A DNA stretch of 62,496 nucleotides, the filler included, from Globobulimina sp. (Eukaryota): assembly GCA_003354225.1 (NCBI GenBank). It is 12 parts of 12 records of this genome, joined end to end, with 100 filler letters (N's around TTAATTAATTAA, not from the genome) between each part and the next. Parts side by side here need not be neighbours in the genome. Positions count along the whole stretch, not along the records: positions 5,224 to 10,346 come from PIVH01000712.1; 11 more parts are not named here. One strand, written 5' to 3'. The notes beneath the pieces are model-generated. The model did no database searches, was not told the origin of the DNA, and saw only the letters and a program-made list of their open reading frames with translations. The position numbers and the translations under genes were made by a program. Positions 1,786 to 40,987 of the stretch are shown here, piece by piece. Position 1 is the first letter of the stretch. Each line of letters begins with the position of its first letter.

Positions 1786-4700
1786 ATGTTTACGATGCAG
1801 TATTTCTTATTGACGTTAATTGTAATTACAATCGCGACTAAAGATTCCTTGATGGACCCAGAGAAATACGTAAAAATATACTCTCAATGCGACCCAACAC
1901 CAGATAGCACCATTCATAAAAACAATGGATTATATTATATTAAACCCTCAGTCGACGGCATGATAATTCCAGTGATATGTTCCAACGGCTATACAATGAT
2001 TGATTTATCATTAGACACAAATTTAAAATCAATCCCAACCTACTTATCCTCATATGATTACAGTCGCGTTTCCATCGATTATATTATCCCCAATTTAGAT
2101 GATACCGCCACATTTCGTGAATGGTGGTTACCTTCTGATAAAAATACAAAATTCCGCATTGCAAAAGATTGCAAATCTTGTCTCGATTCAAGAGATCCAT
2201 TGCTATCAAACAATGTCGTATATTATACGGATTCGTCTCTATTTTGCTACACATCATACATTGGCAACAATGCCTGTTTGGACGCAGTCAACGCATATTC
2301 CTGCAACATATGCGATGTCGGCATCTTTACGCAAACTGCAAATGATATAAACAACGACCAATATTGGCGTCAATGCAGTGCCTTACAAGCCTCTCCTGAC
2401 ACTCCCTCGTGGCATGAACCACAAATGAGAGTGAATCACCATTTGATATATCGACCAGTAATGAGCTTACAACGTAGTGCCTGTAGCTGCTATCAACAAG
2501 AAAGCAAAAACAAAAACGAAATATTAAAAGAATATATCATCGCAAAGAGTGAGTTGCCGCTTGTAACATATGGCACAAATAATATTAAAGCTGGTGCAGA
2601 GCTCATGGAGAATATCCAATATATCGATGATAGCATACAATTTCAGGATATTCATGTCGCGGATGACGAGTCTGCAGACAATGATATGTTAAACAAGTGT
2701 GCTGAAAATAAAATATATTTGACTCAAAATGATTTCTTAACCGGTACTTATCGCATCCGCGACTGTGGAGAATATATATTTACTCAGGATATTATCTGCA
2801 ATTTCAATGCCCCGACACATGAACAAGAATTAGATTTGGATTTCAGTCCCAATTCAATTGACAACGAAGCGAATGAATTATATTGGTTTCCAACACGCGA
2901 ACAAGCCTCAAAAGATAATTCCTATCCGGGTTTGTATGATTTTATTGGCTCGTTTTCGTTGGGCTTTTTTAGTGGGATCACGGTCGAAACTGATGATGTA
3001 ATTATTAATTTAAACGGCTTTACCTTTTCAATGCATAAAAAGTTTTATGTACAGCAACGTTTTTTTAGTTTAATTGAAATGGCGTCGAAAATGTTTGAAC
3101 CGTTACAAGGACCGACTGCGTGGGGGCTATATAACGAATATTATGCAAAGAATTTAGAAATCAAAGGACCGGGTACTTTAGCGACCTCATCGCATCATGC
3201 AATCCATGGCAATTTGGCTCAAAATGTCTATATTCATGACTTAAATATTAAAAATTTTGATGTGGCAGGAATTTCTTGCAATGGATGTTCATTTTTAACC
3301 ATTGAAAATGTAGTGGTTGGGCCTCAAAACAAAAATATACCCACTTTAGGTCGCTATACGCATGCAAGGGCATTCTTACCTCGCTTGAAACATCTAAACG
3401 ATAAATTTGGCGATGAATTTATTACATTTTATAACCGAAATCCAATACAAATATCACAATTATGTTCCCGAATGGTGCAAGAAATGGATATGATTTATTT
3501 TAATTATATAAATAACAAACAATATGACGATATTAGTAATTTGGAATGGATTGCAGCCAAGAAAATATTCCTGAATCCGAGCGGTTGGATGGATGGTGGC
3601 AGTTCGTATGGAATAACCATCAATGGGCGCGGCGCCGCTGTGGTTGGCATTGGTGTACGTACCGACTCCGTGAATAATATTATTTTGCGCAATGTAGAAA
3701 TATTTGGTATTTACAACGAAGCAAAGGAGAAAATAAAGTATCAGCTACCTGCTGCCGACGAGAAAAATAATGGCCAAGAGGCCACGACTCGGGGCATATT
3801 ATTTGATGCCATCGATTGGATTGCAGTCAGTGATCAGATTGAGGACCGAATGAAGAGCCAATATGTTGGTGATTGTTATACCGACATTCAATTTGCGGCA
3901 GCAAAGTTTGTTGATTCTTGGTACTTTCGTAATTCTTATTTTGTTGGACAAAGCAACATTGATTATGTGTTCAAAGGGAATAATCTGGAAACTGACTATC
4001 CATTTTTAAAGATATTGCCACAGCGAAATGAAAACGATTATTACGAGGATGTCATTACACGGTCATGCGGCACTGACATACAACTCCATTCCTCCAAAGG
4101 TGCCATTGGTTTAATGATTAATGGAGCGCAAGATTCAATAATCGATGATGTTTTTATTCATGATATTTATAATTTTGCTGCGTTGGGTTCAACCATTTGT
4201 GGACCGTACGATGTATTGCATATTACCTTTGAAGATATTGATATTCAAAAAGGATACACAGCGACGAGAGCACATGGTTTGGTGATTGATTTTGCGAGCG
4301 GTGAATTTACGAATATTCATATTGATAATATTCAATCTAAAAATGGCGAAGCAAATGGTTTTACAATTTATAAAGGATCGGATGTGCAATTATTAAATAT
4401 TAATGTAGAGAATGTCTATGCTGGCACAGAATTAACAGAGGAGGATGTAAATCAATTAGTTTTACCAAATTATGTACCGAGAGCATGTTCTATTGATATT
4501 CATGAAAATGCACAAGTTGAATATGTAACAGGTACGATGTCCGACAATTTAGTATTTGGAAATATTGATGGATTTATTGTTTGTGATCCATTTAATGATG
4601 AAAGTGATAGTAATGATGGAGGAATATTGAGCTCAAATACAGTTTTATTTGGATTGGTAATGAGTATATTTGTTTTTTTGATGATAATTATTTATTGGAA

Positions 4701-4788
4701 TCGTAAACCAATATTCAAAACAAACAAAAAATTTTCTGAAAACACACCTTTATTAAACAAAAATAATGATATCGAAATTACTCCGTAA
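1786..4788 (+). CDS. Type I membrane protein: signal peptide, fibrinogen-like N-terminal motif, putative right-handed beta-helix, C-terminal TM and dileucine motif
   Basis: 1000-aa ORF; hydrophobic N-terminus; GLYYIKP..IPVICSNGYTMID; beta-helix-like repeats (NVYIHDLNIKNFDVAGISCNGCSFLTIENVVVG); TM VLFGLVMSIFVFLMIIIYW; ENTPLL tail. Confidence 0.7.
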   Translation: MFTMQYFLLTLIVITIATKDSLMDPEKYVKIYSQCDPTPDSTIHKNNGLYYIKPSVDGMIIPVICSNGYTMIDLSLDTNLKSIPTYLSSYDYSRVSIDYIIPNLDDTATFREWWLPSDKNTKFRIAKDCKSCLDSRDPLLSNNVVYYTDSSLFCYTSYIGNNACLDAVNAYSCNICDVGIFTQTANDINNDQYWRQCSALQASPDTPSWHEPQMRVNHHLIYRPVMSLQRSACSCYQQESKNKNEILKEYIIAKSELPLVTYGTNNIKAGAELMENIQYIDDSIQFQDIHVADDESADNDMLNKCAENKIYLTQNDFLTGTYRIRDCGEYIFTQDIICNFNAPTHEQELDLDFSPNSIDNEANELYWFPTREQASKDNSYPGLYDFIGSFSLGFFSGITVETDDVIINLNGFTFSMHKKFYVQQRFFSLIEMASKMFEPLQGPTAWGLYNEYYAKNLEIKGPGTLATSSHHAIHGNLAQNVYIHDLNIKNFDVAGISCNGCSFLTIENVVVGPQNKNIPTLGRYTHARAFLPRLKHLNDKFGDEFITFYNRNPIQISQLCSRMVQEMDMIYFNYINNKQYDDISNLEWIAAKKIFLNPSGWMDGGSSYGITINGRGAAVVGIGVRTDSVNNIILRNVEIFGIYNEAKEKIKYQLPAADEKNNGQEATTRGILFDAIDWIAVSDQIEDRMKSQYVGDCYTDIQFAAAKFVDSWYFRNSYFVGQSNIDYVFKGNNLETDYPFLKILPQRNENDYYEDVITRSCGTDIQLHSSKGAIGLMINGAQDSIIDDVFIHDIYNFAALGSTICGPYDVLHITFEDIDIQKGYTATRAHGLVIDFASGEFTNIHIDNIQSKNGEANGFTIYKGSDVQLLNINVENVYAGTELTEEDVNQLVLPNYVPRACSIDIHENAQVEYVTGTMSDNLVFGNIDGFIVCDPFNDESDSNDGGILSSNTVLFGLVMSIFVFLMIIIYWNRKPIFKTNKKFSENTPLLNKNNDIEITP

Positions 4789-5224: not shown

Positions 5225-6085
5225 TTGATAAATAGCGATAATGACGTTGTGAATGATGGCGCTGAGACTGTGAATGCGCTCTCTTTGTCTTTGGATTTGG
5301 CATTGACGGGCAATCAACGTGAATCACAATTATCTGCACTGAATTTACAATCAGCACGCATATATAATACAGCTGCTGATGATAGCTTGGCTCCATCCAA
5401 TGATAGCGATTTGCATATATTGGTGACTAAATTGAATGAAATGGAGGTGGACGTAGATGATGTGAATAGCACACAGAATTTGACTTTGATTGATACGCAA
5501 TTTACCAGATCACACTCGCAATCTGCGCACCCTCTATTAGAGAGCCCTGGTGGTGATGAGAAAAGGGTTTTTGATGAGAGTGAGTTACAGAATGAAGAAA
5601 AACAGTTTCGGGCCAGAGAACGGCAACGACAGAGTGGATATTTATCTTATCCTAATTCACAACCGTCTGTCCATTCTCATATTGACTCGCATGGCCAATC
5701 TGATTATCGTTCTGCAAAACAGATTGTTCAATCGTCACACAAATATAATACGCGATCACGTTCTAAACGTCGGCGAGAGCGTAAAGCGCGATATAAATTA
5801 GAATTGGTTGCTGCAGATGTACATAATACAAATGTACAACAAAGCAATATGCAGATGCATACACAGCAGATACAAACACATCCACAGCAGTCAGAAGAAG
5901 AACATATTAAATTGACCTATGCACAAAGACCTAAGCGCCAATTCCAGGATACACAAAGTATTACTCGTAGCTGGAAAAAAGCATCCGATGACTCCAGAAA
6001 GTTACGTCGTAGCCAGCGAATTGAAAATAAACATCAGCAATACCAACAGCAACAACATAAGCAAAAACATAATACATTTTCATGA
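5225..6085 (+). CDS. Putative ORF1 of the LINE (5'-truncated; basic, disordered, Gln-rich)
   Basis: Open from the contig edge; Arg-rich patches YNTRSRSKRRR and RKLRRSQRI; stop TGA overlaps the next ATG (ATGA 6082-6085); no CCHC knuckle visible. Confidence 0.6.
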   Translation: MINSDNDVVNDGAETVNALSLSLDLALTGNQRESQLSALNLQSARIYNTAADDSLAPSNDSDLHILVTKLNEMEVDVDDVNSTQNLTLIDTQFTRSHSQSAHPLLESPGGDEKRVFDESELQNEEKQFRARERQRQSGYLSYPNSQPSVHSHIDSHGQSDYRSAKQIVQSSHKYNTRSRSKRRRERKARYKLELVAADVHNTNVQQSNMQMHTQQIQTHPQQSEEEHIKLTYAQRPKRQFQDTQSITRSWKKASDDSRKLRRSQRIENKHQQYQQQQHKQKHNTFS

Positions 6086-6714
6086 TTTTTGATATTAATA
6101 TCTTTGTAATATATAACCATATACATTTTTTATGGTTTATAGTGTATATATTGCATTGTATCTTTTTTACACTAATTTATTTTTGTTTTAATCCATTATT
6201 TTTGACTTACTTCTTTAATGATTTTGTTATTTTTAATCTTATCTTCTTTTTTAATGCATTTGCCATTCTGATTATGGTTTTTATGGCATGTTTGTTTTTG
6301 ATTTTGTTTTTTCTAAAGTTTGTCCTTTGGTTTTTCAATATTTCTCTTTTTATTCTCTTTTCTAGTTTTTTTAGTCACATAATTTTAGATTTCCTTTTTT
6401 CATTATTTATAATCTTTATTTCTAAATTTCCTTTTTGCCATTTGATGTTTCATGCCAATATTCTTGATTTTTGTTATTTGCATTTGGTTTTGAGATACTT
6501 TCTTTATTTATTTTCTTTGATTACTTATCAAAATTCTTTACATTTCAAACAATCAGAAACTCGATCACATGTTTTAGTTATTTTTATCCTATGCTTCATT
6601 CTCGATTTATGCCTTATTTCCGATCTCGCAGTTTCTATTTATTTATGCTATATATTGGTGTTATTATGCTGTCATTTGTTTGTTTATCTGTATGGTATCC
6701 AATTTATTAAATGA
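6082..6714 (+). CDS. Putative hydrophobic multi-TM ORF between ORF1 and ORF2
   Basis: 210 stop-free codons rich in F/I/L; ATGA overlap at both ends (6082-6085 and 6711-6714). Could also be a T-rich spacer that is open by chance. Confidence 0.45.
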   Translation: MIFDINIFVIYNHIHFLWFIVYILHCIFFTLIYFCFNPLFLTYFFNDFVIFNLIFFFNAFAILIMVFMACLFLILFFLKFVLWFFNISLFILFSSFFSHIILDFLFSLFIIFISKFPFCHLMFHANILDFCYLHLVLRYFLYLFSLITYQNSLHFKQSETRSHVLVIFILCFILDLCLISDLAVSIYLCYILVLLCCHLFVYLYGIQFIK

Positions 6715-9700
6715 TGATGCAAAATAATCATAGAAAAGGTACATTTCCTCATATAATTGATAGCGACAAGATATTGGATCATATTGATTATAATTACTAT
6801 AATCATTCTTTGTCATTTATGTCTCTTAATATTAATGGGTTACTACACGCAGATTTAGGCCGAATTAATGATAAAAAGCTGTGTGTTTTACAAAGTATCA
6901 TTGATGAATTGGAGCCTACAATCATTGCATTGCAGGAGGTTTGCATTCATTATAAGTCAGATTTAGAACCACCACATATCGATGGATATTTTTGTAGCAT
7001 TAATGATGTCCCGTTATATGATATGCATTTGAAAAATGTTGTGTACATTAAAAATAATATGCGGGAATATGTAGATGTTGTCAGTCTTAATGATATGGAC
7101 AGAAAGCATATCATTCGTGATTTGGTAGATTTGTCAGCTTTGACACATGAAAATGGGCATTATTCTACGTGGTTTATCATACATCCCTCGCCCGTGTCAA
7201 ATGTAACTGAGTCTGTTTTGTTTGGATCTTATTATCGTTCGCCGAATCGATCTCTTTTGGTTTCGGACTTACAAATATTTAAATATACTCTTAGTTATAT
7301 TCTGCATCGATATAAACAAAGAGGATGGGATGGAAATTCATTGGTATATACAAATAAAATTATTCGTACCTTTATCTTTTGTGGGGATTTTAATATTCAT
7401 AATGAGCTATATTCGAAGATAAATCATCAACAATATAATAAAACAGACAGAATGGAATTTAAATGGTTGTCGCAAATTATTGAAGCAAAACATGTTTCTA
7501 TTGTCAATACACAGCGTATACCGACACATAACAAAGGTAATGTCCTTGATTTGCATTTGGTTTCTGATAAATTGATGAAGCATTGCAATAATTATGTGAT
7601 AAATTGTATAAATGATGATGATCCTATGCAACATATCTCTGATCATTATATTCTATTTTCGATCATCAATTTGGATGCTTGTCAGCATAAACGGTTTGAT
7701 TCGGTGAATTTGCATCAGTTTTCTGTAAATAATGTGAATTATCGTTTTAATAATCCGAAGCAACTGCATTTGTATAAGCTTCGTACAATTCGGGCTCTAC
7801 GGCACTTGGAACAACGTATTGATGCTTTGAATATCACAAATTATACAGACATTGATAAAATATCGCATGCATTCTATTGTTTGATCCACAAAAATGCGAC
7901 CAAATATATTGGCAAAATCAAGAAACGGACTTATCGATATCGTCAGCTTTGGTGCAATGATCATATAATTAATTATAGCAATCATGTGGCAAAAATCAAA
8001 CGTGATTGGTTGCAATGCGCAGATTTGTCATTGAAAGGCGAGTTGCGGGCTATATATAAAAAAGATAGAAACACATTGAAAAATATGTGTACACAAGCAA
8101 AGAAATATAAATTACGGCAAAATATACATTTAACTGTTAATGGTGGCCGAGATATACATAAATCGATGCGATACCTACGTAAAATTGGTAAAGTTACGAC
8201 ACGTAAACATCGTATTCCTTATCTAATACACAAAGATACGAGCACTGGATTGACGAATTTTGTTCATAATAATCATGAGAAGGCCAATCTATTTGCGCTC
8301 AAATTTTGTCATCGTGATCTATCTCATATTCGTTATAATCCATTGAATCGGATACAATTTAAGAACATTCCGCTGATGGATACTATTTATGATTGTAATA
8401 AGGTAATACATGATATCTCTCATAGATTGCCAGCAAATGGCATAAATAATCCCCGACTCATTCGTAATGATTATAGACATAAACGAGCCACAAATACTAG
8501 TTCGATATATTTAGTTCGATATATTTTGCGAATTATGAATAATAAATGCAATCACGGTGTTGGTATACACCTGCAATTGTTACTATATTTGGATCCGTAT
8601 ATTATACAATTTTTGGTGAAGTATTTAAATATCTTCTTTACGTTTGAATATTTGCCGAGGATACATAAAATAACATATATTTCGGCCATTTCTAAGCCTA
8701 AACGAGACCATCATTTTGTTGATAACTATCGGGAGATATCACTTAATGGATCAATCAAAAAGTTGTATGAATTATGTTTATTGTATAAGGGACTTGAATT
8801 TGTTATTGACTGTGATGTAATTCATCCAAATAACACAACCAATATGAAGGGAAAGTCGACGCGGGATATCGTTCTGTTAATGATAAATGATATTAAGCAG
8901 CAATGGAATCGACAGATTCCAACATATGCCATATTTTCTGACATCGCACAAGATTTTCCTTCGGTGAGATATGATATTTTGATCCAGCGTTTGTATCAAT
9001 ATTATGGCTTTCCGATGAAATATGTTCGGATAATGTATGATTTGTTGATAAATTGTTGGTGTGCAGTCGTGATAAATGGCATTCGATCTCAGTGGATGCT
9101 GCAACTCATTGGGTTGGGTCAGGGCCGCCCATTGAGTCCTTTTTTGAATATGCTTTATTTGGACCCGTTATACTATACGATTCCGAAATATCTGCCGTTG
9201 AAAATATATATATACGTCGATGACTTGGTAATGTGGACTGTAATGAAGGCGCTCTTTATGTATGATATTGAATATGGACTACAATATGCCATCGATAATG
9301 TTATTAATTGGTTGAGTCTGAATGGGATGAAATTATCTGAAAGAAAGACTAAATATATTGTCTTTTATACAAAACATATGGATAAGAAATATGTAGTTCC
9401 GCGACCACACATTCGATTGTATAAAATGGTGAAAATCAAACCTGAACAGTATGTTAAATATGTGGGATATTATCTAACTTATAATTTATCGCCGCGTATA
9501 CAAATTAATCACATGGTACAGCGAATGTATTTGGATTGTAAGAGTATACAAACTACGGCCAAATATATTGTTGGCTTCCCAATGAAGAAGCTCTTCCACT
9601 ATTTTTCGTCAGTTATACTATCTAAGATTGAGTATCCAGTGATTTTGTTTACGTGTATTAATAATAAAAATGACTTTTCTCCGTTGAAAAAGATGTATTA

Positions 9701-10346
9701 TCAAACTATAAAACTGTTATTTGGCGCAACCCGAACTATTCCGCATGATATCTTAATCATTTTGACTCCTTTTACACATTTTGAGGTGTTCATTGATATC
9801 AAATTGCTTCGTAATTGGGTGAATTTGCTATATTTACATGATCGTAATGTGCTATATACATTGATCAGAGATCATTGGTTACCACAATGGAATTCATATT
9901 TGTTATCGCCGCTAAATCGCCGTACACAGAAATCAAAATTGCGTTATATGCAGACGTACGACCGAAAGAATCCATTTTTCCAACTGTTTCTACTTGCGAT
10001 TAAGTATAATGTGTTGGATTCGATAAATTATAATTGGCGATTTGCGATGAATGAGTATGGCACAAAAATTAAATACATTCCATCCTTTGTGATTAAGCCA
10101 AAACATATACAATTTGTGTGTGGAATGTATACAGAAACACAACAAATTAATAACTGTCATTGCACTGTTTTTGGCTTTACCGATGGTTCAATCATTAAGA
10201 AATATGGCGGTGTTGGCATGTTGTTGGAAATACATCGCATTCACTGCCATTTTACACTGTGTTCCGCCGATATTGCTCTCCCTTATAACAAGCAACCAAA
10301 TGACATTGATATTGATACTTTAACTGATATGAAATTACAGTATGAT
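6711..10346 (+). CDS. LINE ORF2: AP endonuclease + reverse transcriptase + start of RNase H (3'-truncated)
   Basis: APE motifs SLNINGL, IALQEV, YYRSP, GDFNIH, LDLHLVS, SDHY. RT motifs YREISL, FSDIAQDFPSV, GLGQGRPLSP, YVDD, KYVG. RNase H-type FTDGS...GVG near the contig end. Confidence 0.95.
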
Positions 10347-27033: not shown

Positions 27034-27615
27034 TTAGTGTGGTACTGCTTATTGAGGCAAATAAAAAAAAATATTTTAATTATTGTCAAAAACTCATAGG
27101 ATTCTGAATCTGACGTATATTGTCATCATTGACGATGACTGATGACATTCACATAACTAGTTAACTACTGACATTCACTTTCTAAGTATAAAAATCGGTA
27201 CCACATGAATATGTGCACTGGTTTGGGCCATCTTGTACTATTTGCTGTGTTCAGAAACAACTGAACATTATGAAATTGATGAAAATACAAAAAAACTCAA
27301 CTATTTACTACTCAATCAGTCATCTCAGTTAATAAACAATGTCCGCCGAACACGCAACACTCCTTTGATCAGTCACGCATACATACATGCACACTTACTC
27401 TGAATTGATACCATATTGTAATTGTATCACCACCCAATATCTAAACGTGCATATTATAAAATAAACAAATTAAAAATTTTTTGTATACACCGAAAAAAAC
27501 ACAAAAATTTATCTTTTCTTTACTCTCAGTTATCTTTTCGTGGAATATAACCACTCCTATCAATATCAATTCCATTCCATATTGGATTGTTAATGTAAAC
27601 CACTATGCCCATATC

Positions 27616-29991
27616 ATGTCACATTGGTTAGCATCAACATCAAAACAACAACAACACTCAATGTCCGTCCAAAAACACTCTAACAACAACATTTATAATT
27701 TATTCTTGTTTCTATCCCTATTCTTTCTATTCACACCAATCCACAGCCAAGACACTGATCACACCACAACCTTCAACACCACCTTCGACACCACAATCAA
27801 CGACACCATCTACACCATCACCGACAACACAATAATAATCTCACAAATAAACGAATTGATTAAAAACGGCGGCATAGAACGCGGTAAAACGTGTGCTGAT
27901 ATGGGTTTGAATAACTGCACTTATATCGATACCTCACACTCTGACTCCCATCCATATGCTGATATAAACGACTGCAACTCCACAAAAGTGTGCATCATAA
28001 CTTGCGATGAGCAGTATTCATGTTCAGATTGGCACATCTACGCAGCACCAGACATGATATTGGTCATTGACTGCATAGCTCCTGGTTCCTGCAAACAGCT
28101 CTCCATTCATGCCACGCAAGCTTCCTTTGTCCACCTCCAAGCCAACAATATAAACTCGATCACAAATTCACAAATCCAATGTCCACACTCAGACTCACAC
28201 TCACAGTCACCGTCCTGTGTCATATGCGGTCGCTGTACAGATATGCATGGCGATGAACATTGCGAGCCCACTGAGACAACATTGAGCAGAATTTTCAACG
28301 ATGATTATACAGTCAAGTCCTCTGATGCTATGATGAAACATTTATCCATCTACGCCGAACATGGATACTCAGATGTGACTCTACTGTGTGATTTGTGGGA
28401 AGTGGGTCTATGCGTTACACACAGTGTGATATTATGTGAGCACCAACGGCAGCAACAAACGTGTTGGATCGCCATCGAGTATACATATGATCAGAGGTCT
28501 GCGCAGTATGCGTATGTCTGTGAGGACGATGTGCAATGTAATACTTATAGTTATAATACAACGGATGAGATACATGCAACAGTAGCAGATGTGACAGATT
28601 CCAGTGAGGATCCAGACGCGAATGCGGCAAATATATCAGACTCACAAGGTAAGGACATAGTGACTTTATTGCACTTACTACGCGATATATTAAAGAAGAA
28701 AAACATGATATTATATGTGAGCATTACGGTGTGCACTGTCGTCTGTTTGTGTGGTGTGTTATGCGTATTAGTATGCAAATGTCCATCACGAGACAGAGAG
28801 CGCGAAAACGATGCAAAGAGAGAATTTAAATTCGAGCAAAAACAGCAGGAGAAACAAAATGTAAAATATAATAAAAACAGTTATAAACTATGCAAGAAAT
28901 GTACAGCAAAGTCGTGTTTATGTTATTATTTATCGTGTTGTTGTTGTTGTTATTGCTGGCAATGTTTACGTCGCTCATCGCAGCAAAACACACATTTAAA
29001 TAATAGCCATAACCATAGCACGCCTCCAAAGCACATGCATGTCAACAAAGACAACGTCAACAATAACTCTCATACGGATGAGCCACAAACTATAAATCCA
29101 CTATCCATTGATAAAAAAGGTGGCATTATTCCTTCATTTTTCATTAAAAACCGAGATAAACAGCTCATATCACCATCGCATTCAGGAACGAATACTGTCG
29201 AATTGGTCGTAATTGCCAATAATAATTTACATCCACCGGCGTATTTATCGCATATACAACAACAATCGCATACCACTACGATCGCACCATCGTGCAATTT
29301 AAATAAATTAGTTAACTTACAACAACAACAAAGCTTATCCTCGCAACACAGGCAATGCAACACAGAGCGGGGTACGTTTTCACGTAGTTTTGAGACACAG
29401 ATGCATTTACAACAACGATCGTGTTCTCATACCTCACACCATGATGGATTGGAAGAGCAGGCTGCAAAGAAAATTGGTGATGCGAAATTAGGCACAAATA
29501 CCGGACATAATACGCAGGCAAATAGCAATACGCCCAATCATAATCATACACCGTTTCTACCCAATGATGCATGTCATTGTCCTGTAACACATTGTCCTGT
29601 CACAGCAAAACATGATACAGATACAGGTACACTTGGTGCCGTAGTTGGTGGTGACTTTGCCTATGCACTGAAGATGCAACAGCAGCAGATATTTGATGCT
29701 GTGCTGGTGGGTAATACACCGACAACGACAAAAAATACACCTACGGATACACCGGGCCATACACCACCAACCAATGGCGATACACCATATACAATCACAG
29801 TGGGCAATGTACATTCGGAGGCACAACATGTACCGACACAGACCATTGCGGCCGATGGTGATATTATTAATCTTGGCGGCGGCTTTGCCATTGGACCGGA
29901 AGAGTCCACCTCGTCCACACATACATCCATTACGGACTCACGGTCTTCGCAGACATTCGATCCTGAACATCCGAGTTGTTATGATCAATAA
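27616..29991 (+). CDS. Cys-rich type I membrane protein with long low-complexity cytoplasmic tail (start codon uncertain: 27616 or 27661)
   Basis: Signal-like LFLFLSLFFLFTPIHS; Cys-rich ectodomain (CIITCDEQYSC..IDCIAPGSC); TM ILYVSITVCTVVCLCGVLCVLV; poly-Cys cluster; His/Gln/Thr-rich tail. Confidence 0.7.
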   Translation: MSHWLASTSKQQQHSMSVQKHSNNNIYNLFLFLSLFFLFTPIHSQDTDHTTTFNTTFDTTINDTIYTITDNTIIISQINELIKNGGIERGKTCADMGLNNCTYIDTSHSDSHPYADINDCNSTKVCIITCDEQYSCSDWHIYAAPDMILVIDCIAPGSCKQLSIHATQASFVHLQANNINSITNSQIQCPHSDSHSQSPSCVICGRCTDMHGDEHCEPTETTLSRIFNDDYTVKSSDAMMKHLSIYAEHGYSDVTLLCDLWEVGLCVTHSVILCEHQRQQQTCWIAIEYTYDQRSAQYAYVCEDDVQCNTYSYNTTDEIHATVADVTDSSEDPDANAANISDSQGKDIVTLLHLLRDILKKKNMILYVSITVCTVVCLCGVLCVLVCKCPSRDRERENDAKREFKFEQKQQEKQNVKYNKNSYKLCKKCTAKSCLCYYLSCCCCCYCWQCLRRSSQQNTHLNNSHNHSTPPKHMHVNKDNVNNNSHTDEPQTINPLSIDKKGGIIPSFFIKNRDKQLISPSHSGTNTVELVVIANNNLHPPAYLSHIQQQSHTTTIAPSCNLNKLVNLQQQQSLSSQHRQCNTERGTFSRSFETQMHLQQRSCSHTSHHDGLEEQAAKKIGDAKLGTNTGHNTQANSNTPNHNHTPFLPNDACHCPVTHCPVTAKHDTDTGTLGAVVGGDFAYALKMQQQQIFDAVLVGNTPTTTKNTPTDTPGHTPPTNGDTPYTITVGNVHSEAQHVPTQTIAADGDIINLGGGFAIGPEESTSSTHTSITDSRSSQTFDPEHPSCYDQ

Positions 29992-39341: not shown

Positions 39342-40919
39342 CTATATATAAATATCACCGCATTGATGCATATCACCCGCATATTCAACAATTAGTTTGT
39401 CCAAATGATATCTGCCAAACAACTTTGCTAATTGGGAGTCGCGTATTTTTGTGGCCTCAATATTTGTTCTTTGTTGCATCATTTTGTCAATCAATTTTTC
39501 ATTCAGAACTGAATTATCTTGAACTATCATCACATTCAAACACATTTCAAACACATATCGTAAATTCCACAATTTATACACAATCAAGCAATTTACAACG
39601 AAATGTAGAATCAAGCAAATTGCAAATACACTGAAATGCCAATAATTGGACAATAACAAATATAGCGAATGCCACATGGATTGAGATGATGATAATGTTG
39701 AAATAAATAGCGATTTAATAACTTGATTTTCTGCAACATAATTTTGTATTGAATGATATGAATATAAATCAGTAATTATTTGGTGAGCAATGATATATGG
39801 ATACAATAACGCATATAATATGTATACAATTTGCAAAGGAATAAACACAAATAATAACATTATGTATTGCATTTCTACCAATTTGTCATAAAATGACATA
39901 CCATCCTCATCGTCATCATCATCATAAGCATTCTTCCATAACATTTTAAATTCCCATTTGAATGATTGTCGACTTGTTGAAGTAATTTGAGGTATTGTAT
40001 ACCCTCTTAATTCCCGAATAAATTTTGAAGTACATTCCGAATACGCAGTTGTTAATAATTTGCTTGCTACGTATTTTGCGCTCGATGGTATCCAAAATGC
40101 CGATGAATAATGTTCAGCGAGGACTTTATTTGCAATCCCTACTCTTAATTGATATTCGTCGACGTCATTTGTTTCAGGATATTTGCTGGCATTTGGCTGG
40201 TGTGTAATTGCTTTTTTTTTGAATAGTGATTGGAACTCACAATCAAAGAAAGCAAAAATCGGAATTAACAATGTTGTAAACAATGTGCCAAATATATTAC
40301 AACTATTTGATGGTTGATGGATATGTATAAATTTGAACAGTTTTTGATAGAATGCATCAGAGTGCGGACTGCTTAAATTATCATGAATGGGAAAGTATAA
40401 TTTTTTCGAGTAAATTGCAGGAATTATATTAATATTCGAATGGACAAATGATGACAACACAAAAACAGATAACTTGAAAAAAGAAATAAATGCTACTATC
40501 GGAAATGTAGCCACTCCGATAAATATAATAAGGGTCAGAATTAAAAATACAAAACATGCCACATCAAATCCACTAAATGACGTTTGATGAACTACACCAA
40601 CACAGGAAACAACAATGCATAATGCAACCACTGTTGACAAATTGAACAAAAATATCCAAATATACGTATAATAGGAATCACAATTATGCGTAAATAATGA
40701 TAATGGGGATATTTGGTACACACTTAATTGATTACCAGTTAATTCATTCTCTGTAAATCTTGCTTGCGAAAATTCCATCCATGCGACGGTGCTCGCAAAA
40801 ATGAACAAATCTGACAACATAAGGAAATTTACCAAATTCGCACGGTGATGAAAGGGAGGCATTGATCCCATGTCTGGCATTTTTTTCTTTTGATACCAGG
40901 TCATGTGTGGATAGGTCAT
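39342..40919 (-). CDS. Hypothetical multi-pass membrane protein
   Basis: 525-aa ATG ORF with about 5-7 hydrophobic helices; no family recognised. Confidence 0.7.
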   Translation of the reverse strand: MTYPHMTWYQKKKMPDMGSMPPFHHRANLVNFLMLSDLFIFASTVAWMEFSQARFTENELTGNQLSVYQISPLSLFTHNCDSYYTYIWIFLFNLSTVVALCIVVSCVGVVHQTSFSGFDVACFVFLILTLIIFIGVATFPIVAFISFFKLSVFVLSSFVHSNINIIPAIYSKKLYFPIHDNLSSPHSDAFYQKLFKFIHIHQPSNSCNIFGTLFTTLLIPIFAFFDCEFQSLFKKKAITHQPNASKYPETNDVDEYQLRVGIANKVLAEHYSSAFWIPSSAKYVASKLLTTAYSECTSKFIRELRGYTIPQITSTSRQSFKWEFKMLWKNAYDDDDDEDGMSFYDKLVEMQYIMLLFVFIPLQIVYILYALLYPYIIAHQIITDLYSYHSIQNYVAENQVIKSLFISTLSSSQSMWHSLYLLLSNYWHFSVFAICLILHFVVNCLIVYKLWNLRYVFEMCLNVMIVQDNSVLNEKLIDKMMQQRTNIEATKIRDSQLAKLFGRYHLDKLIVEYAGDMHQCGDIYI

Positions 40920-40987
40920 ATTTCCGACTCAGTTTGTAGTTTTTTTACATTCCCAAAACTTCTTACCTACTCTCACCTGCCTATCCA

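Follow-up and report, generated by a model that had tools for sequence, protein, structure and literature searches.

The window analysed here is a 62,496-nt stretch of DNA, filler included, from the assembly of Globobulimina sp. (GCA_003354225.1), and it is made up of unrelated contigs joined by linkers. One of these, contig C712 (PIVH01000712.1, 5123 nt), is taken up entirely by a retrotransposon without long terminal repeats, which by its domain content is an APE-type long interspersed nuclear element (LINE). A third frame lies between its open reading frame 1 (ORF1) and its ORF2, which encodes the reverse transcriptase (RT), and overlaps both. As judged from the copies compared, this three-frame architecture is common to a divergent LINE family of the Globobulimina genome. 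The middle frame is probably a bridge for ribosomes that is indifferent to its own peptide and has a termination-reinitiation step at either end. A first-pass annotation of the window placed the LINE at 5225 to 10346. These positions are contig ends and not ends of the LINE; ORF1 is cut at its 5′ side and ORF2 at its 3′ side. The two ATGA overlaps that it described (6082–6085 and 6711–6714) are present as reported. ORF1 ends in TCA TGA, with the stop at 6083–6085 and the overlapping ATG at 6082–6084, and the middle frame ends in AAA TGA (6712–6714), which overlaps the ORF2 ATG at 6711–6713. Both junctions of the window copy are −1 steps.

A search of the genome with the APE region of this copy gives 27 matches at 44–78% identity in addition to the query itself, indicating a dispersed multi-copy family. 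A search with the relative protein P0013 gives 36 matches. Fourteen APE-matched copies reach the ORF2 N-terminus, and 13 of them contain spacer DNA (contig C4323 begins at the AUG). The 13 copies form four subfamilies, and the spacing between ORF1 and ORF2 is approximately 600 nt, shorter in some subfamilies. Each of the 13 has a U-rich frame without stops that leads up to ORF2 and is open throughout or as far as the contig extends (in C1599, as far as a chimeric break).

The open middle frame is not due to chance. Six spacer frames of 202–232 codons are each matched by 0 of 3000 dinucleotide shuffles, and four frames of 88–128 codons by 15–43 of 3000. Frames of 44 and 74 codons (268 and 234 of 3000) are not significant alone, and a 22-codon frame was left out of the shuffling. 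Shuffling of the window spacer leaves a sense frame open in none of 3000 trials with dinucleotides preserved and in 2 of 20000 with mononucleotides. The 3′ untranslated regions (3′UTRs) of 12 of the 14 family 3′ ends served as a control, one distant family and one 15-codon stub having been dropped. In these sequences (45–53% T) each frame contains 2–14 stops and the longest open run is 71 codons. The U content of the spacers is 0.48–0.60, compared with a 3′UTR mean of 0.48. Stops or indels in other copies had been named in the first-pass annotation as grounds for rejecting the chain of frames. Taken to the letter, the indel condition applies, since indels and frame switches are common, but stops do not appear. 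The absence of stops despite indels favours coupling and counts against a conserved product.

The junction of ORF1 with the middle frame (junction 1) is present in eight copies, each of which is also recovered by motif-independent searches. The overlap reads ATGA in three copies, TTAA in three, GTAA in one and TTAG in one. An AUG lies exactly on the stop in the first three, which belong to two subfamilies. The last or second-last ORF1 codon is Ser in all eight. A small hairpin is the one block common to all eight copies, and the −1 frame is open beyond it in every case. Within its stem, 63 of 64 cells are paired (33–47% in slid controls), two pairs are changed on both sides and three keep pairing through a one-sided change. 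The distances from the ORF1 stop to the stem are 20, 20, 23, 29, 29, 29, 32 and 32 nt. These are always in one phase, which implies that the sequence is read in frame from the ORF1 stop even where there is no AUG. Conserved RNA structure past the stop-start site, as in the silkworm LINE SART1, is present at junction 1 in the form of a covarying hairpin. Looser versions of the hairpin pattern gave seven extra matches without ORF1 context in one search (six unrelated) and nine in another (eight inspected, all unrelated). An Rfam scan of 5225–7200 gave nothing real.

At junction 2, every one of the 13 copies has its middle-frame stop at −17 to +11 nt relative to an ORF2 AUG, and in each the upstream stop is within the approximately 14–17 nt of the start that are characteristic of reinitiation. 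The junction takes the form AUGA (three copies), UGAUG (four), AUG-n2-UGA (two), AUG-n8-UAA (two), AUG-n14-UAG (one) or a stop 11 nt before the AUG (one). The conservation predicted for the ATGA junctions holds here, with ATGA or TGATG on the ORF2 AUG in all 13 copies, but not at junction 1, where only three of eight copies have the AUG. Five of the 13 copies use the other register for the open frame, which then ends 5–17 nt past the AUG. Both registers are found inside three of the four subfamilies, a pattern incompatible with a frameshift. Within −2 to +20 nt of the ORF2 AUG, all 13 copies have stops in the two out-of-frame registers, compared with 29 of 116 internal ORF2 ATGs used as a control. 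An ORF2-frame stop lies no more than 21 nt upstream of the AUG in nine of 13, and the middle frame is fused to ORF2 in none. A ribosome in any frame would thus stop beside the AUG. In the window copy the ORF2 frame contributes TAA 6708 to the cluster, the middle frame TGA 6712 and TGA 6715, and the third frame TAA 6725 and TAG 6731. The TAA at 6708–6710, previously read as a block to frameshifting into ORF2, is in the ORF2 frame as stated and is one member of this all-frame cluster. The motif TGGAT occurs at −90 to −15 nt of the middle-frame stop in eight of 13 copies (0.7 expected; two in 3708 nt of 3′UTR), these copies being related to one another. The window's subfamily has TGGT in its place. 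Host 18S rRNA was not found in the assembly with an Rfam model or a primer-like pattern.

The middle frame shows no selection at the protein level. In in-frame blocks of high identity, the ratio of nonsynonymous to synonymous differences per site (pN/pS) is 0.81 overall (210 codon pairs), with 26, 27 and 26 differences at the three codon positions. Beyond codon 25 it is 1.03 (confidence interval 0.62–2.01, 153 codon pairs), compared with 0.21 for ORF2 and 0.20 for the end of ORF1. Full local alignments of the middle frame give 1.0–1.7. In the first 25 codons pN/pS is 0.20 (64 pairs, one copy used twice). This low value coincides with the hairpin, which explains the conserved block. The N-terminal peptide xHIHF[LV]W was considered as a conserved product and set aside, because compensatory changes mark the block as a hairpin and most changes in its flanks are non-synonymous; the peptide may still have a role. 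Homologous DNA is also read in different frames. For example, C21504, which is open for 199 codons from an ATG, contains two blocks with homology to the window copy, identical at 34/37 and 42/49 nt and read in another frame. C17176 and C16796 each contain one such block, although C16796 is cut and may be decayed. Spacer length and sequence vary freely among copies. Hydrophobicity, measured as grand average of hydropathy (GRAVY), agrees with the frame-blind expectation in 13 of 13 frames (z −1.9 to +0.5), and charge agrees with it as well. An Atlas search with the middle protein gave just unnamed low-complexity clusters of low recognition value, and neither the middle frame nor the 3′ part of ORF1 has a Pfam match. 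A conventional accessory ORF, such as an env-like or membrane protein, was rejected on the pN/pS of 1.03 past codon 25 and the frame switch in C21504. By these measures the middle frame is not an ordinary gene. The term tricistronic, applied to the element in the first-pass annotation, remains apt for its translation units; it does not extend to three functional proteins, given that the extra ORF does not evolve as a protein gene.

Table 1. Features of the LINE on contig C712, in coordinates of the window
Feature	Position	Strand	Remarks
ORF1, 3′ part	5225..6085	+	286 codons; basic C-terminus with R-S-x-R-x-x-x-K-H motif
Junction 1 (ORF1 stop over middle-frame start, ATGA)	6082..6085	+	−1 step
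Middle (bridge) frame	6082..6714	+	210 codons, 55% U, stop-free, unconserved as protein
Conserved RNA hairpin	6115..6137	+	7–8 bp stem, U-rich loop; 8/8 copies
Candidate upstream UGG(A/U) site	6655..6661	+	TGGT in the window's subfamily
Junction 2, stop cluster round ORF2 AUG	6708..6733	+	
ORF2	6711..10346	+	APE ~6819–7652, RT ~8706–9470, RNase H-like start from 10179

Taken together with the junction forms, these features are most readily accommodated by two serial steps of termination and reinitiation, and we infer that the middle frame is translated and that reinitiation is both its entry and its exit. Ribosomes would translate ORF1 and stop, a fraction staying on the RNA. The small hairpin 20–32 nt downstream would help to retain them, and restart would take place in the −1 frame, at or beside the ORF1 stop, on an AUG or a non-AUG codon. 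Elongation would then proceed through a U-rich, stop-free filler whose peptide is immaterial. Termination would follow at the stop cluster beside the ORF2 AUG, where a fraction of ribosomes would restart, perhaps aided by the upstream UGGAU site. Such a bridge would make RT synthesis dependent on translation of ORF1 from the same RNA, and would lower the RT level twice. Viral reinitiation has an efficiency of 4–20% per step (PMC2699510), and at such values coupling in cis would make RT rare. The first-pass annotation had described a chain of frames shaped like coupled termination-reinitiation; the chain extends to the family as a whole, and its junctions suggest coupling. A stronger form of this model, which could equally well be right or wrong, treats the long frame as a pure conveyor, with 100–230 codons kept free of stops and free as to frame, a hairpin-assisted restart past ORF1 that can do without AUG, a stop cluster in all registers and two serial reinitiations. 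In its boldest version, the hydrophobic chain may also dock the ribonucleoprotein at the nuclear envelope or the endoplasmic reticulum (ER), and a like function may extend to vertebrate L1 elements with long T-rich spacers.

Several observations weigh against a bridge of this kind. Five of the eight first junctions have no AUG, and TTA and GTA are two letters off AUG. Near-cognate codons at −10 to +20 nt of junction 1 are common in such sequence and leave entry by reinitiation unproven. In C5739 the −1 frame shuts at 45 codons, and it is the ORF1 frame that stays open, for 204 codons to TGATG; ORF1 is broken in this contig, which appears to be either a decayed copy or a readthrough variant. 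No stable structure was found within 100 nt either side of junction 2 (z −0.8 to +2.5), and no motif 2/2* stem of the calicivirus TURBS (termination upstream ribosome-binding site) was found there. The pN/pS interval is wide and its blocks were picked for identity. Between copies, aligned spacer DNA has diverged less than the synonymous sites of ORF2 (for the window copy and C26844, pS 0.17 vs 0.36), so by this comparison the spacer is not free at the nucleotide level. Indel lengths are multiples of three in six of 11 spacer offsets vs one of nine in UTR pairs, which is a weak test. The 13 copies fall in four subfamilies, so the counts overstate the number of independent cases.

The same coupling could operate and the bulk product still matter, with a hydrophobic nascent chain that engages the signal recognition particle and tethers the RNA to the ER or nuclear envelope, or with a small membrane protein as the outcome. 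Nascent chains can tether retroelement RNA to the ER. Any frame of a U-rich RNA would give such a chain, hence frame switches would be tolerated. GRAVY is 0.66–1.63 with 1–8 transmembrane-like windows in 9 of 9 frames examined, the spacers are as rich in U as stated above, the frame is never fused to ORF2 and a long spacer is kept even though a direct overlap of ORF1 and ORF2 would be simpler. However, hydrophobicity and charge do not depart from the frame-blind expectation, other frames are equally or more hydrophobic, the Pfam and Atlas searches are uninformative, and neither length nor sequence is held constant. A role for the bulk product is thus possible but rather unlikely. It is improbable that a −1 (or +2) shift at the ORF1 stop takes ribosomes into the middle frame, giving ORF1 with a hydrophobic tail and leaving reinitiation to junction 2 only. 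The missing AUGs, the fixed −1 register, the constant Ser codon and the resemblance of C5739 to readthrough would fit such an entry. On the other side, an X-XXY-YYZ heptamer precedes the ORF1 stop in none of the eight copies, the −1 frame is open just one to three codons ahead of the stop in four copies, and an AUG sits exactly on the stop in three copies of two subfamilies. Frameshift stimulators usually lie 5–9 nt downstream, and the hairpin is beyond this distance. A canonical −1 programmed frameshift was rejected on the missing heptamer and the hairpin distance.

It is very doubtful that the spacer is non-coding (an internal site for ribosome entry (IRES), an internal promoter or an intron) and its open frame incidental. 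Long spacers with a predicted IRES in vertebrate L1 (PMC5381506), as well as conservation at the nucleotide level and the RNA hairpin, are compatible with it. This explanation does not account for the six frames of more than 200 codons at 0 of 3000 shuffles, the closed 3′UTRs of like composition or the fixed phase of junction 1. For an intron in particular, nine of 13 copies lack an AG in the 60 nt before junction 2, and three of seven lack a GT in the final 60 nt of ORF1. The missing AG and GT make splicing of the spacer unlikely.

Among known systems, the preferred model of two serial reinitiations is closest in function, by analogy, to the small-ORF relay proposed for the spacer of megabat L1, in which removal of small spacer-ORF AUGs cut retrotransposition approximately 3.3-fold (PMC4072516). 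Spacers of 257–1032 bp with a predicted IRES are described in vertebrate L1 elements of fish, frog, lizard, opossum and afrotherians, those of fish being T-rich (PMC5381506). The Globobulimina LINE resembles these elements in having hundreds of nucleotides between ORF1 and ORF2. In place of several small ORFs or a predicted IRES, it contains a single frame that extends across the spacer and overlaps the ORF on either side. SART1, an R1-clade LINE of Bombyx mori, couples its ORFs through UAAUG and requires RNA structure downstream of the stop-start site (Kojima 2005, as cited in PMC5972666, PMC10275272 and PMC2699510). The overlapping stop-start is shared with SART1, and a hairpin is conserved where SART1 needs structure. 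Unlike SART1, which passes from ORF1 to ORF2 in one step, the Globobulimina LINE has a 200-codon frame between them and two steps, and the AUG of step one is absent in five of eight copies.

Junctions of termination-reinitiation include AUGA and AUG-n-stop with n = 2, 8 and 14 (PMC5972666, PMC2699510), and calicivirus reinitiation tolerates two or three start-codon changes (PMC5972666). In the calicivirus TURBS, a UGGGA motif 40–90 nt upstream of the stop pairs with 18S helix 26 (PMC5972666). The Globobulimina junctions share these forms and, as a candidate, a short UGG-purine motif (TGGAT approximately 30–60 nt upstream, eight of 13 copies), and would share the tolerance of non-AUG starts. 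They differ from the calicivirus case, which is dicistronic with both products functional, in that the middle frame has no conserved product and no motif 2/2* stem is seen. Mammalian L1 uses an unconventional form of reinitiation to translate ORF2 (Alisch 2006, as cited in PMC5972666 and PMC5381506). There ORF2 requires that ribosomes terminate at an ORF upstream of it, and the same would hold for ORF2 in Globobulimina. The mammalian spacer is 63 nt long, with no bridge frame and no hairpin described in the text available. Paramecium LINEs have two ORFs and rely on frameshift, reinitiation or readthrough (PMC5405496). In the portions of PMC5203782, PMC5006619, PMC5718144 and PMC3894237 covered, no LINE is named that has a third, sense-strand frame separating ORF1 from ORF2. 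A literature search found no LINE with a spacer-spanning frame, its coverage stopping short of Repbase reports, most subscription papers and supplements. By its geometry, the Globobulimina LINE would work like SART1 and calicivirus coupling, and it is not classified here as a proven member of either.

How ORF2 is translated from polycistronic LINE RNA is an open question, IRES and reinitiation being the alternatives, and it is sharpest for elements with long spacers (PMC5381506, PMC4072516). The Globobulimina copies amount to a natural experiment: at approximately 50% ORF2 identity they keep the frame, the phase of junction 1, the hairpin and the stop cluster, and drop the peptide. The ORF1 stop, hairpin, filler and stop cluster may form a compact reinitiation cassette. 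Here a eukaryotic RNA may undergo reinitiation twice in series, each time after a long ORF. It also suggests caution, in that a conserved hydrophobic ORF of 200 codons need not encode a functional membrane protein.

ORF2 of the window copy has two Pfam matches over the cut-off, Exo_endo_phos (1.5e-7, residues 37–314) and RVT_1 (6.6e-15, residues 666–920), and contains YVDD at residue 835. The APE and RT domains annotated earlier are therefore confirmed. An RNase H domain is likely in the family, and the window ORF2 reaches only its first motif (TDGS, 10179). Sister copies contain the full D-E-D-D motifs after RT and a C-terminal Cys/His cluster. A low-confidence model of the RNase H region of a sister copy (pLDDT 44) has many RNase H matches in Foldseek (best E 0.13); there is no Foldseek match with E ≤ 0.001 and no Pfam or PDB sequence match. 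In C1262 (2787–3971) and sister 3′ ends, an insertion of approximately 60 residues lies between the first two acidic motifs of the RNase H-like domain, and the same 3′ ends have an extended Cys/His cluster (C-x3-CC-x2-N-x2-G-x-C) ahead of the usual knuckle. In seven of 14 family 3′ ends an A-run follows 386–425 nt past the ORF2 stop, and the window copy is cut before such a point. In the five 3′UTRs compared this length is near constant across subfamilies, and the conserved ends differ by subfamily. No contig of the family spans both element ends.

A database search with the whole ORF2 gives a best match of 22% identity. Twenty-six proteins are recovered with an APE-region profile; the names of two identify them as transcript products of Bolivina argentea, an indication that the family is foraminiferan. 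Among relatives with DNA context outside this genome, metagenomes gave one locus (an unrelated two-ORF LINE) and viral contigs none, and the sole related locus in prokaryote genomes is a bacterial endonuclease. Misassembly at the junctions is unlikely, as contigs from a separately assembled run, X1 (possibly of the same reads), span junction 1 without gaps (5713–6548, two differing letters) and junction 2 with full identity (6622–7342). A non-standard genetic code was considered and need not be invoked, since table 1 gives open frames for the neighbouring host genes, which have Pfam matches.

Other contigs of the family and its distant relatives have further features. ORF1 is unusually long in C1447 (909–4223), with at least 1105 codons, no Pfam domain over the cut-off and no Atlas match to its first 450 residues. 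A weak PAM2-like stretch, of the kind that interacts with poly(A)-binding protein, is present in ORF1 of two copies (E 0.2 and 0.044) and could bear on translation control. In C5739 (816–1430), the long open frame in the ORF1 frame follows its TAG, and the contig end repeats its first bases. The spacer in C1599 (1–240) adjoins unrelated coding-like sequence, which we take to resemble bacterial DNA; the contig is chimeric or the insertion is 5′-truncated. Two distant LINE contigs of the genome do not contain the ORF1–ORF2 region. In the distant LINE C1457 (3739–4179), a hydrophobic frame of 146 codons overlaps the end of ORF2, where a 3′UTR is expected.

Elsewhere in the window, long ORFs at 27460–29991 and 39342–40928 (843 and 528 codons) have no Pfam match. 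An intronless ORF of 1000 codons at 1786–4788 would encode a secreted or single-pass membrane protein outside any Pfam family. This protein contains a sub-threshold GH28 stretch only and is probably beta-helix-like.

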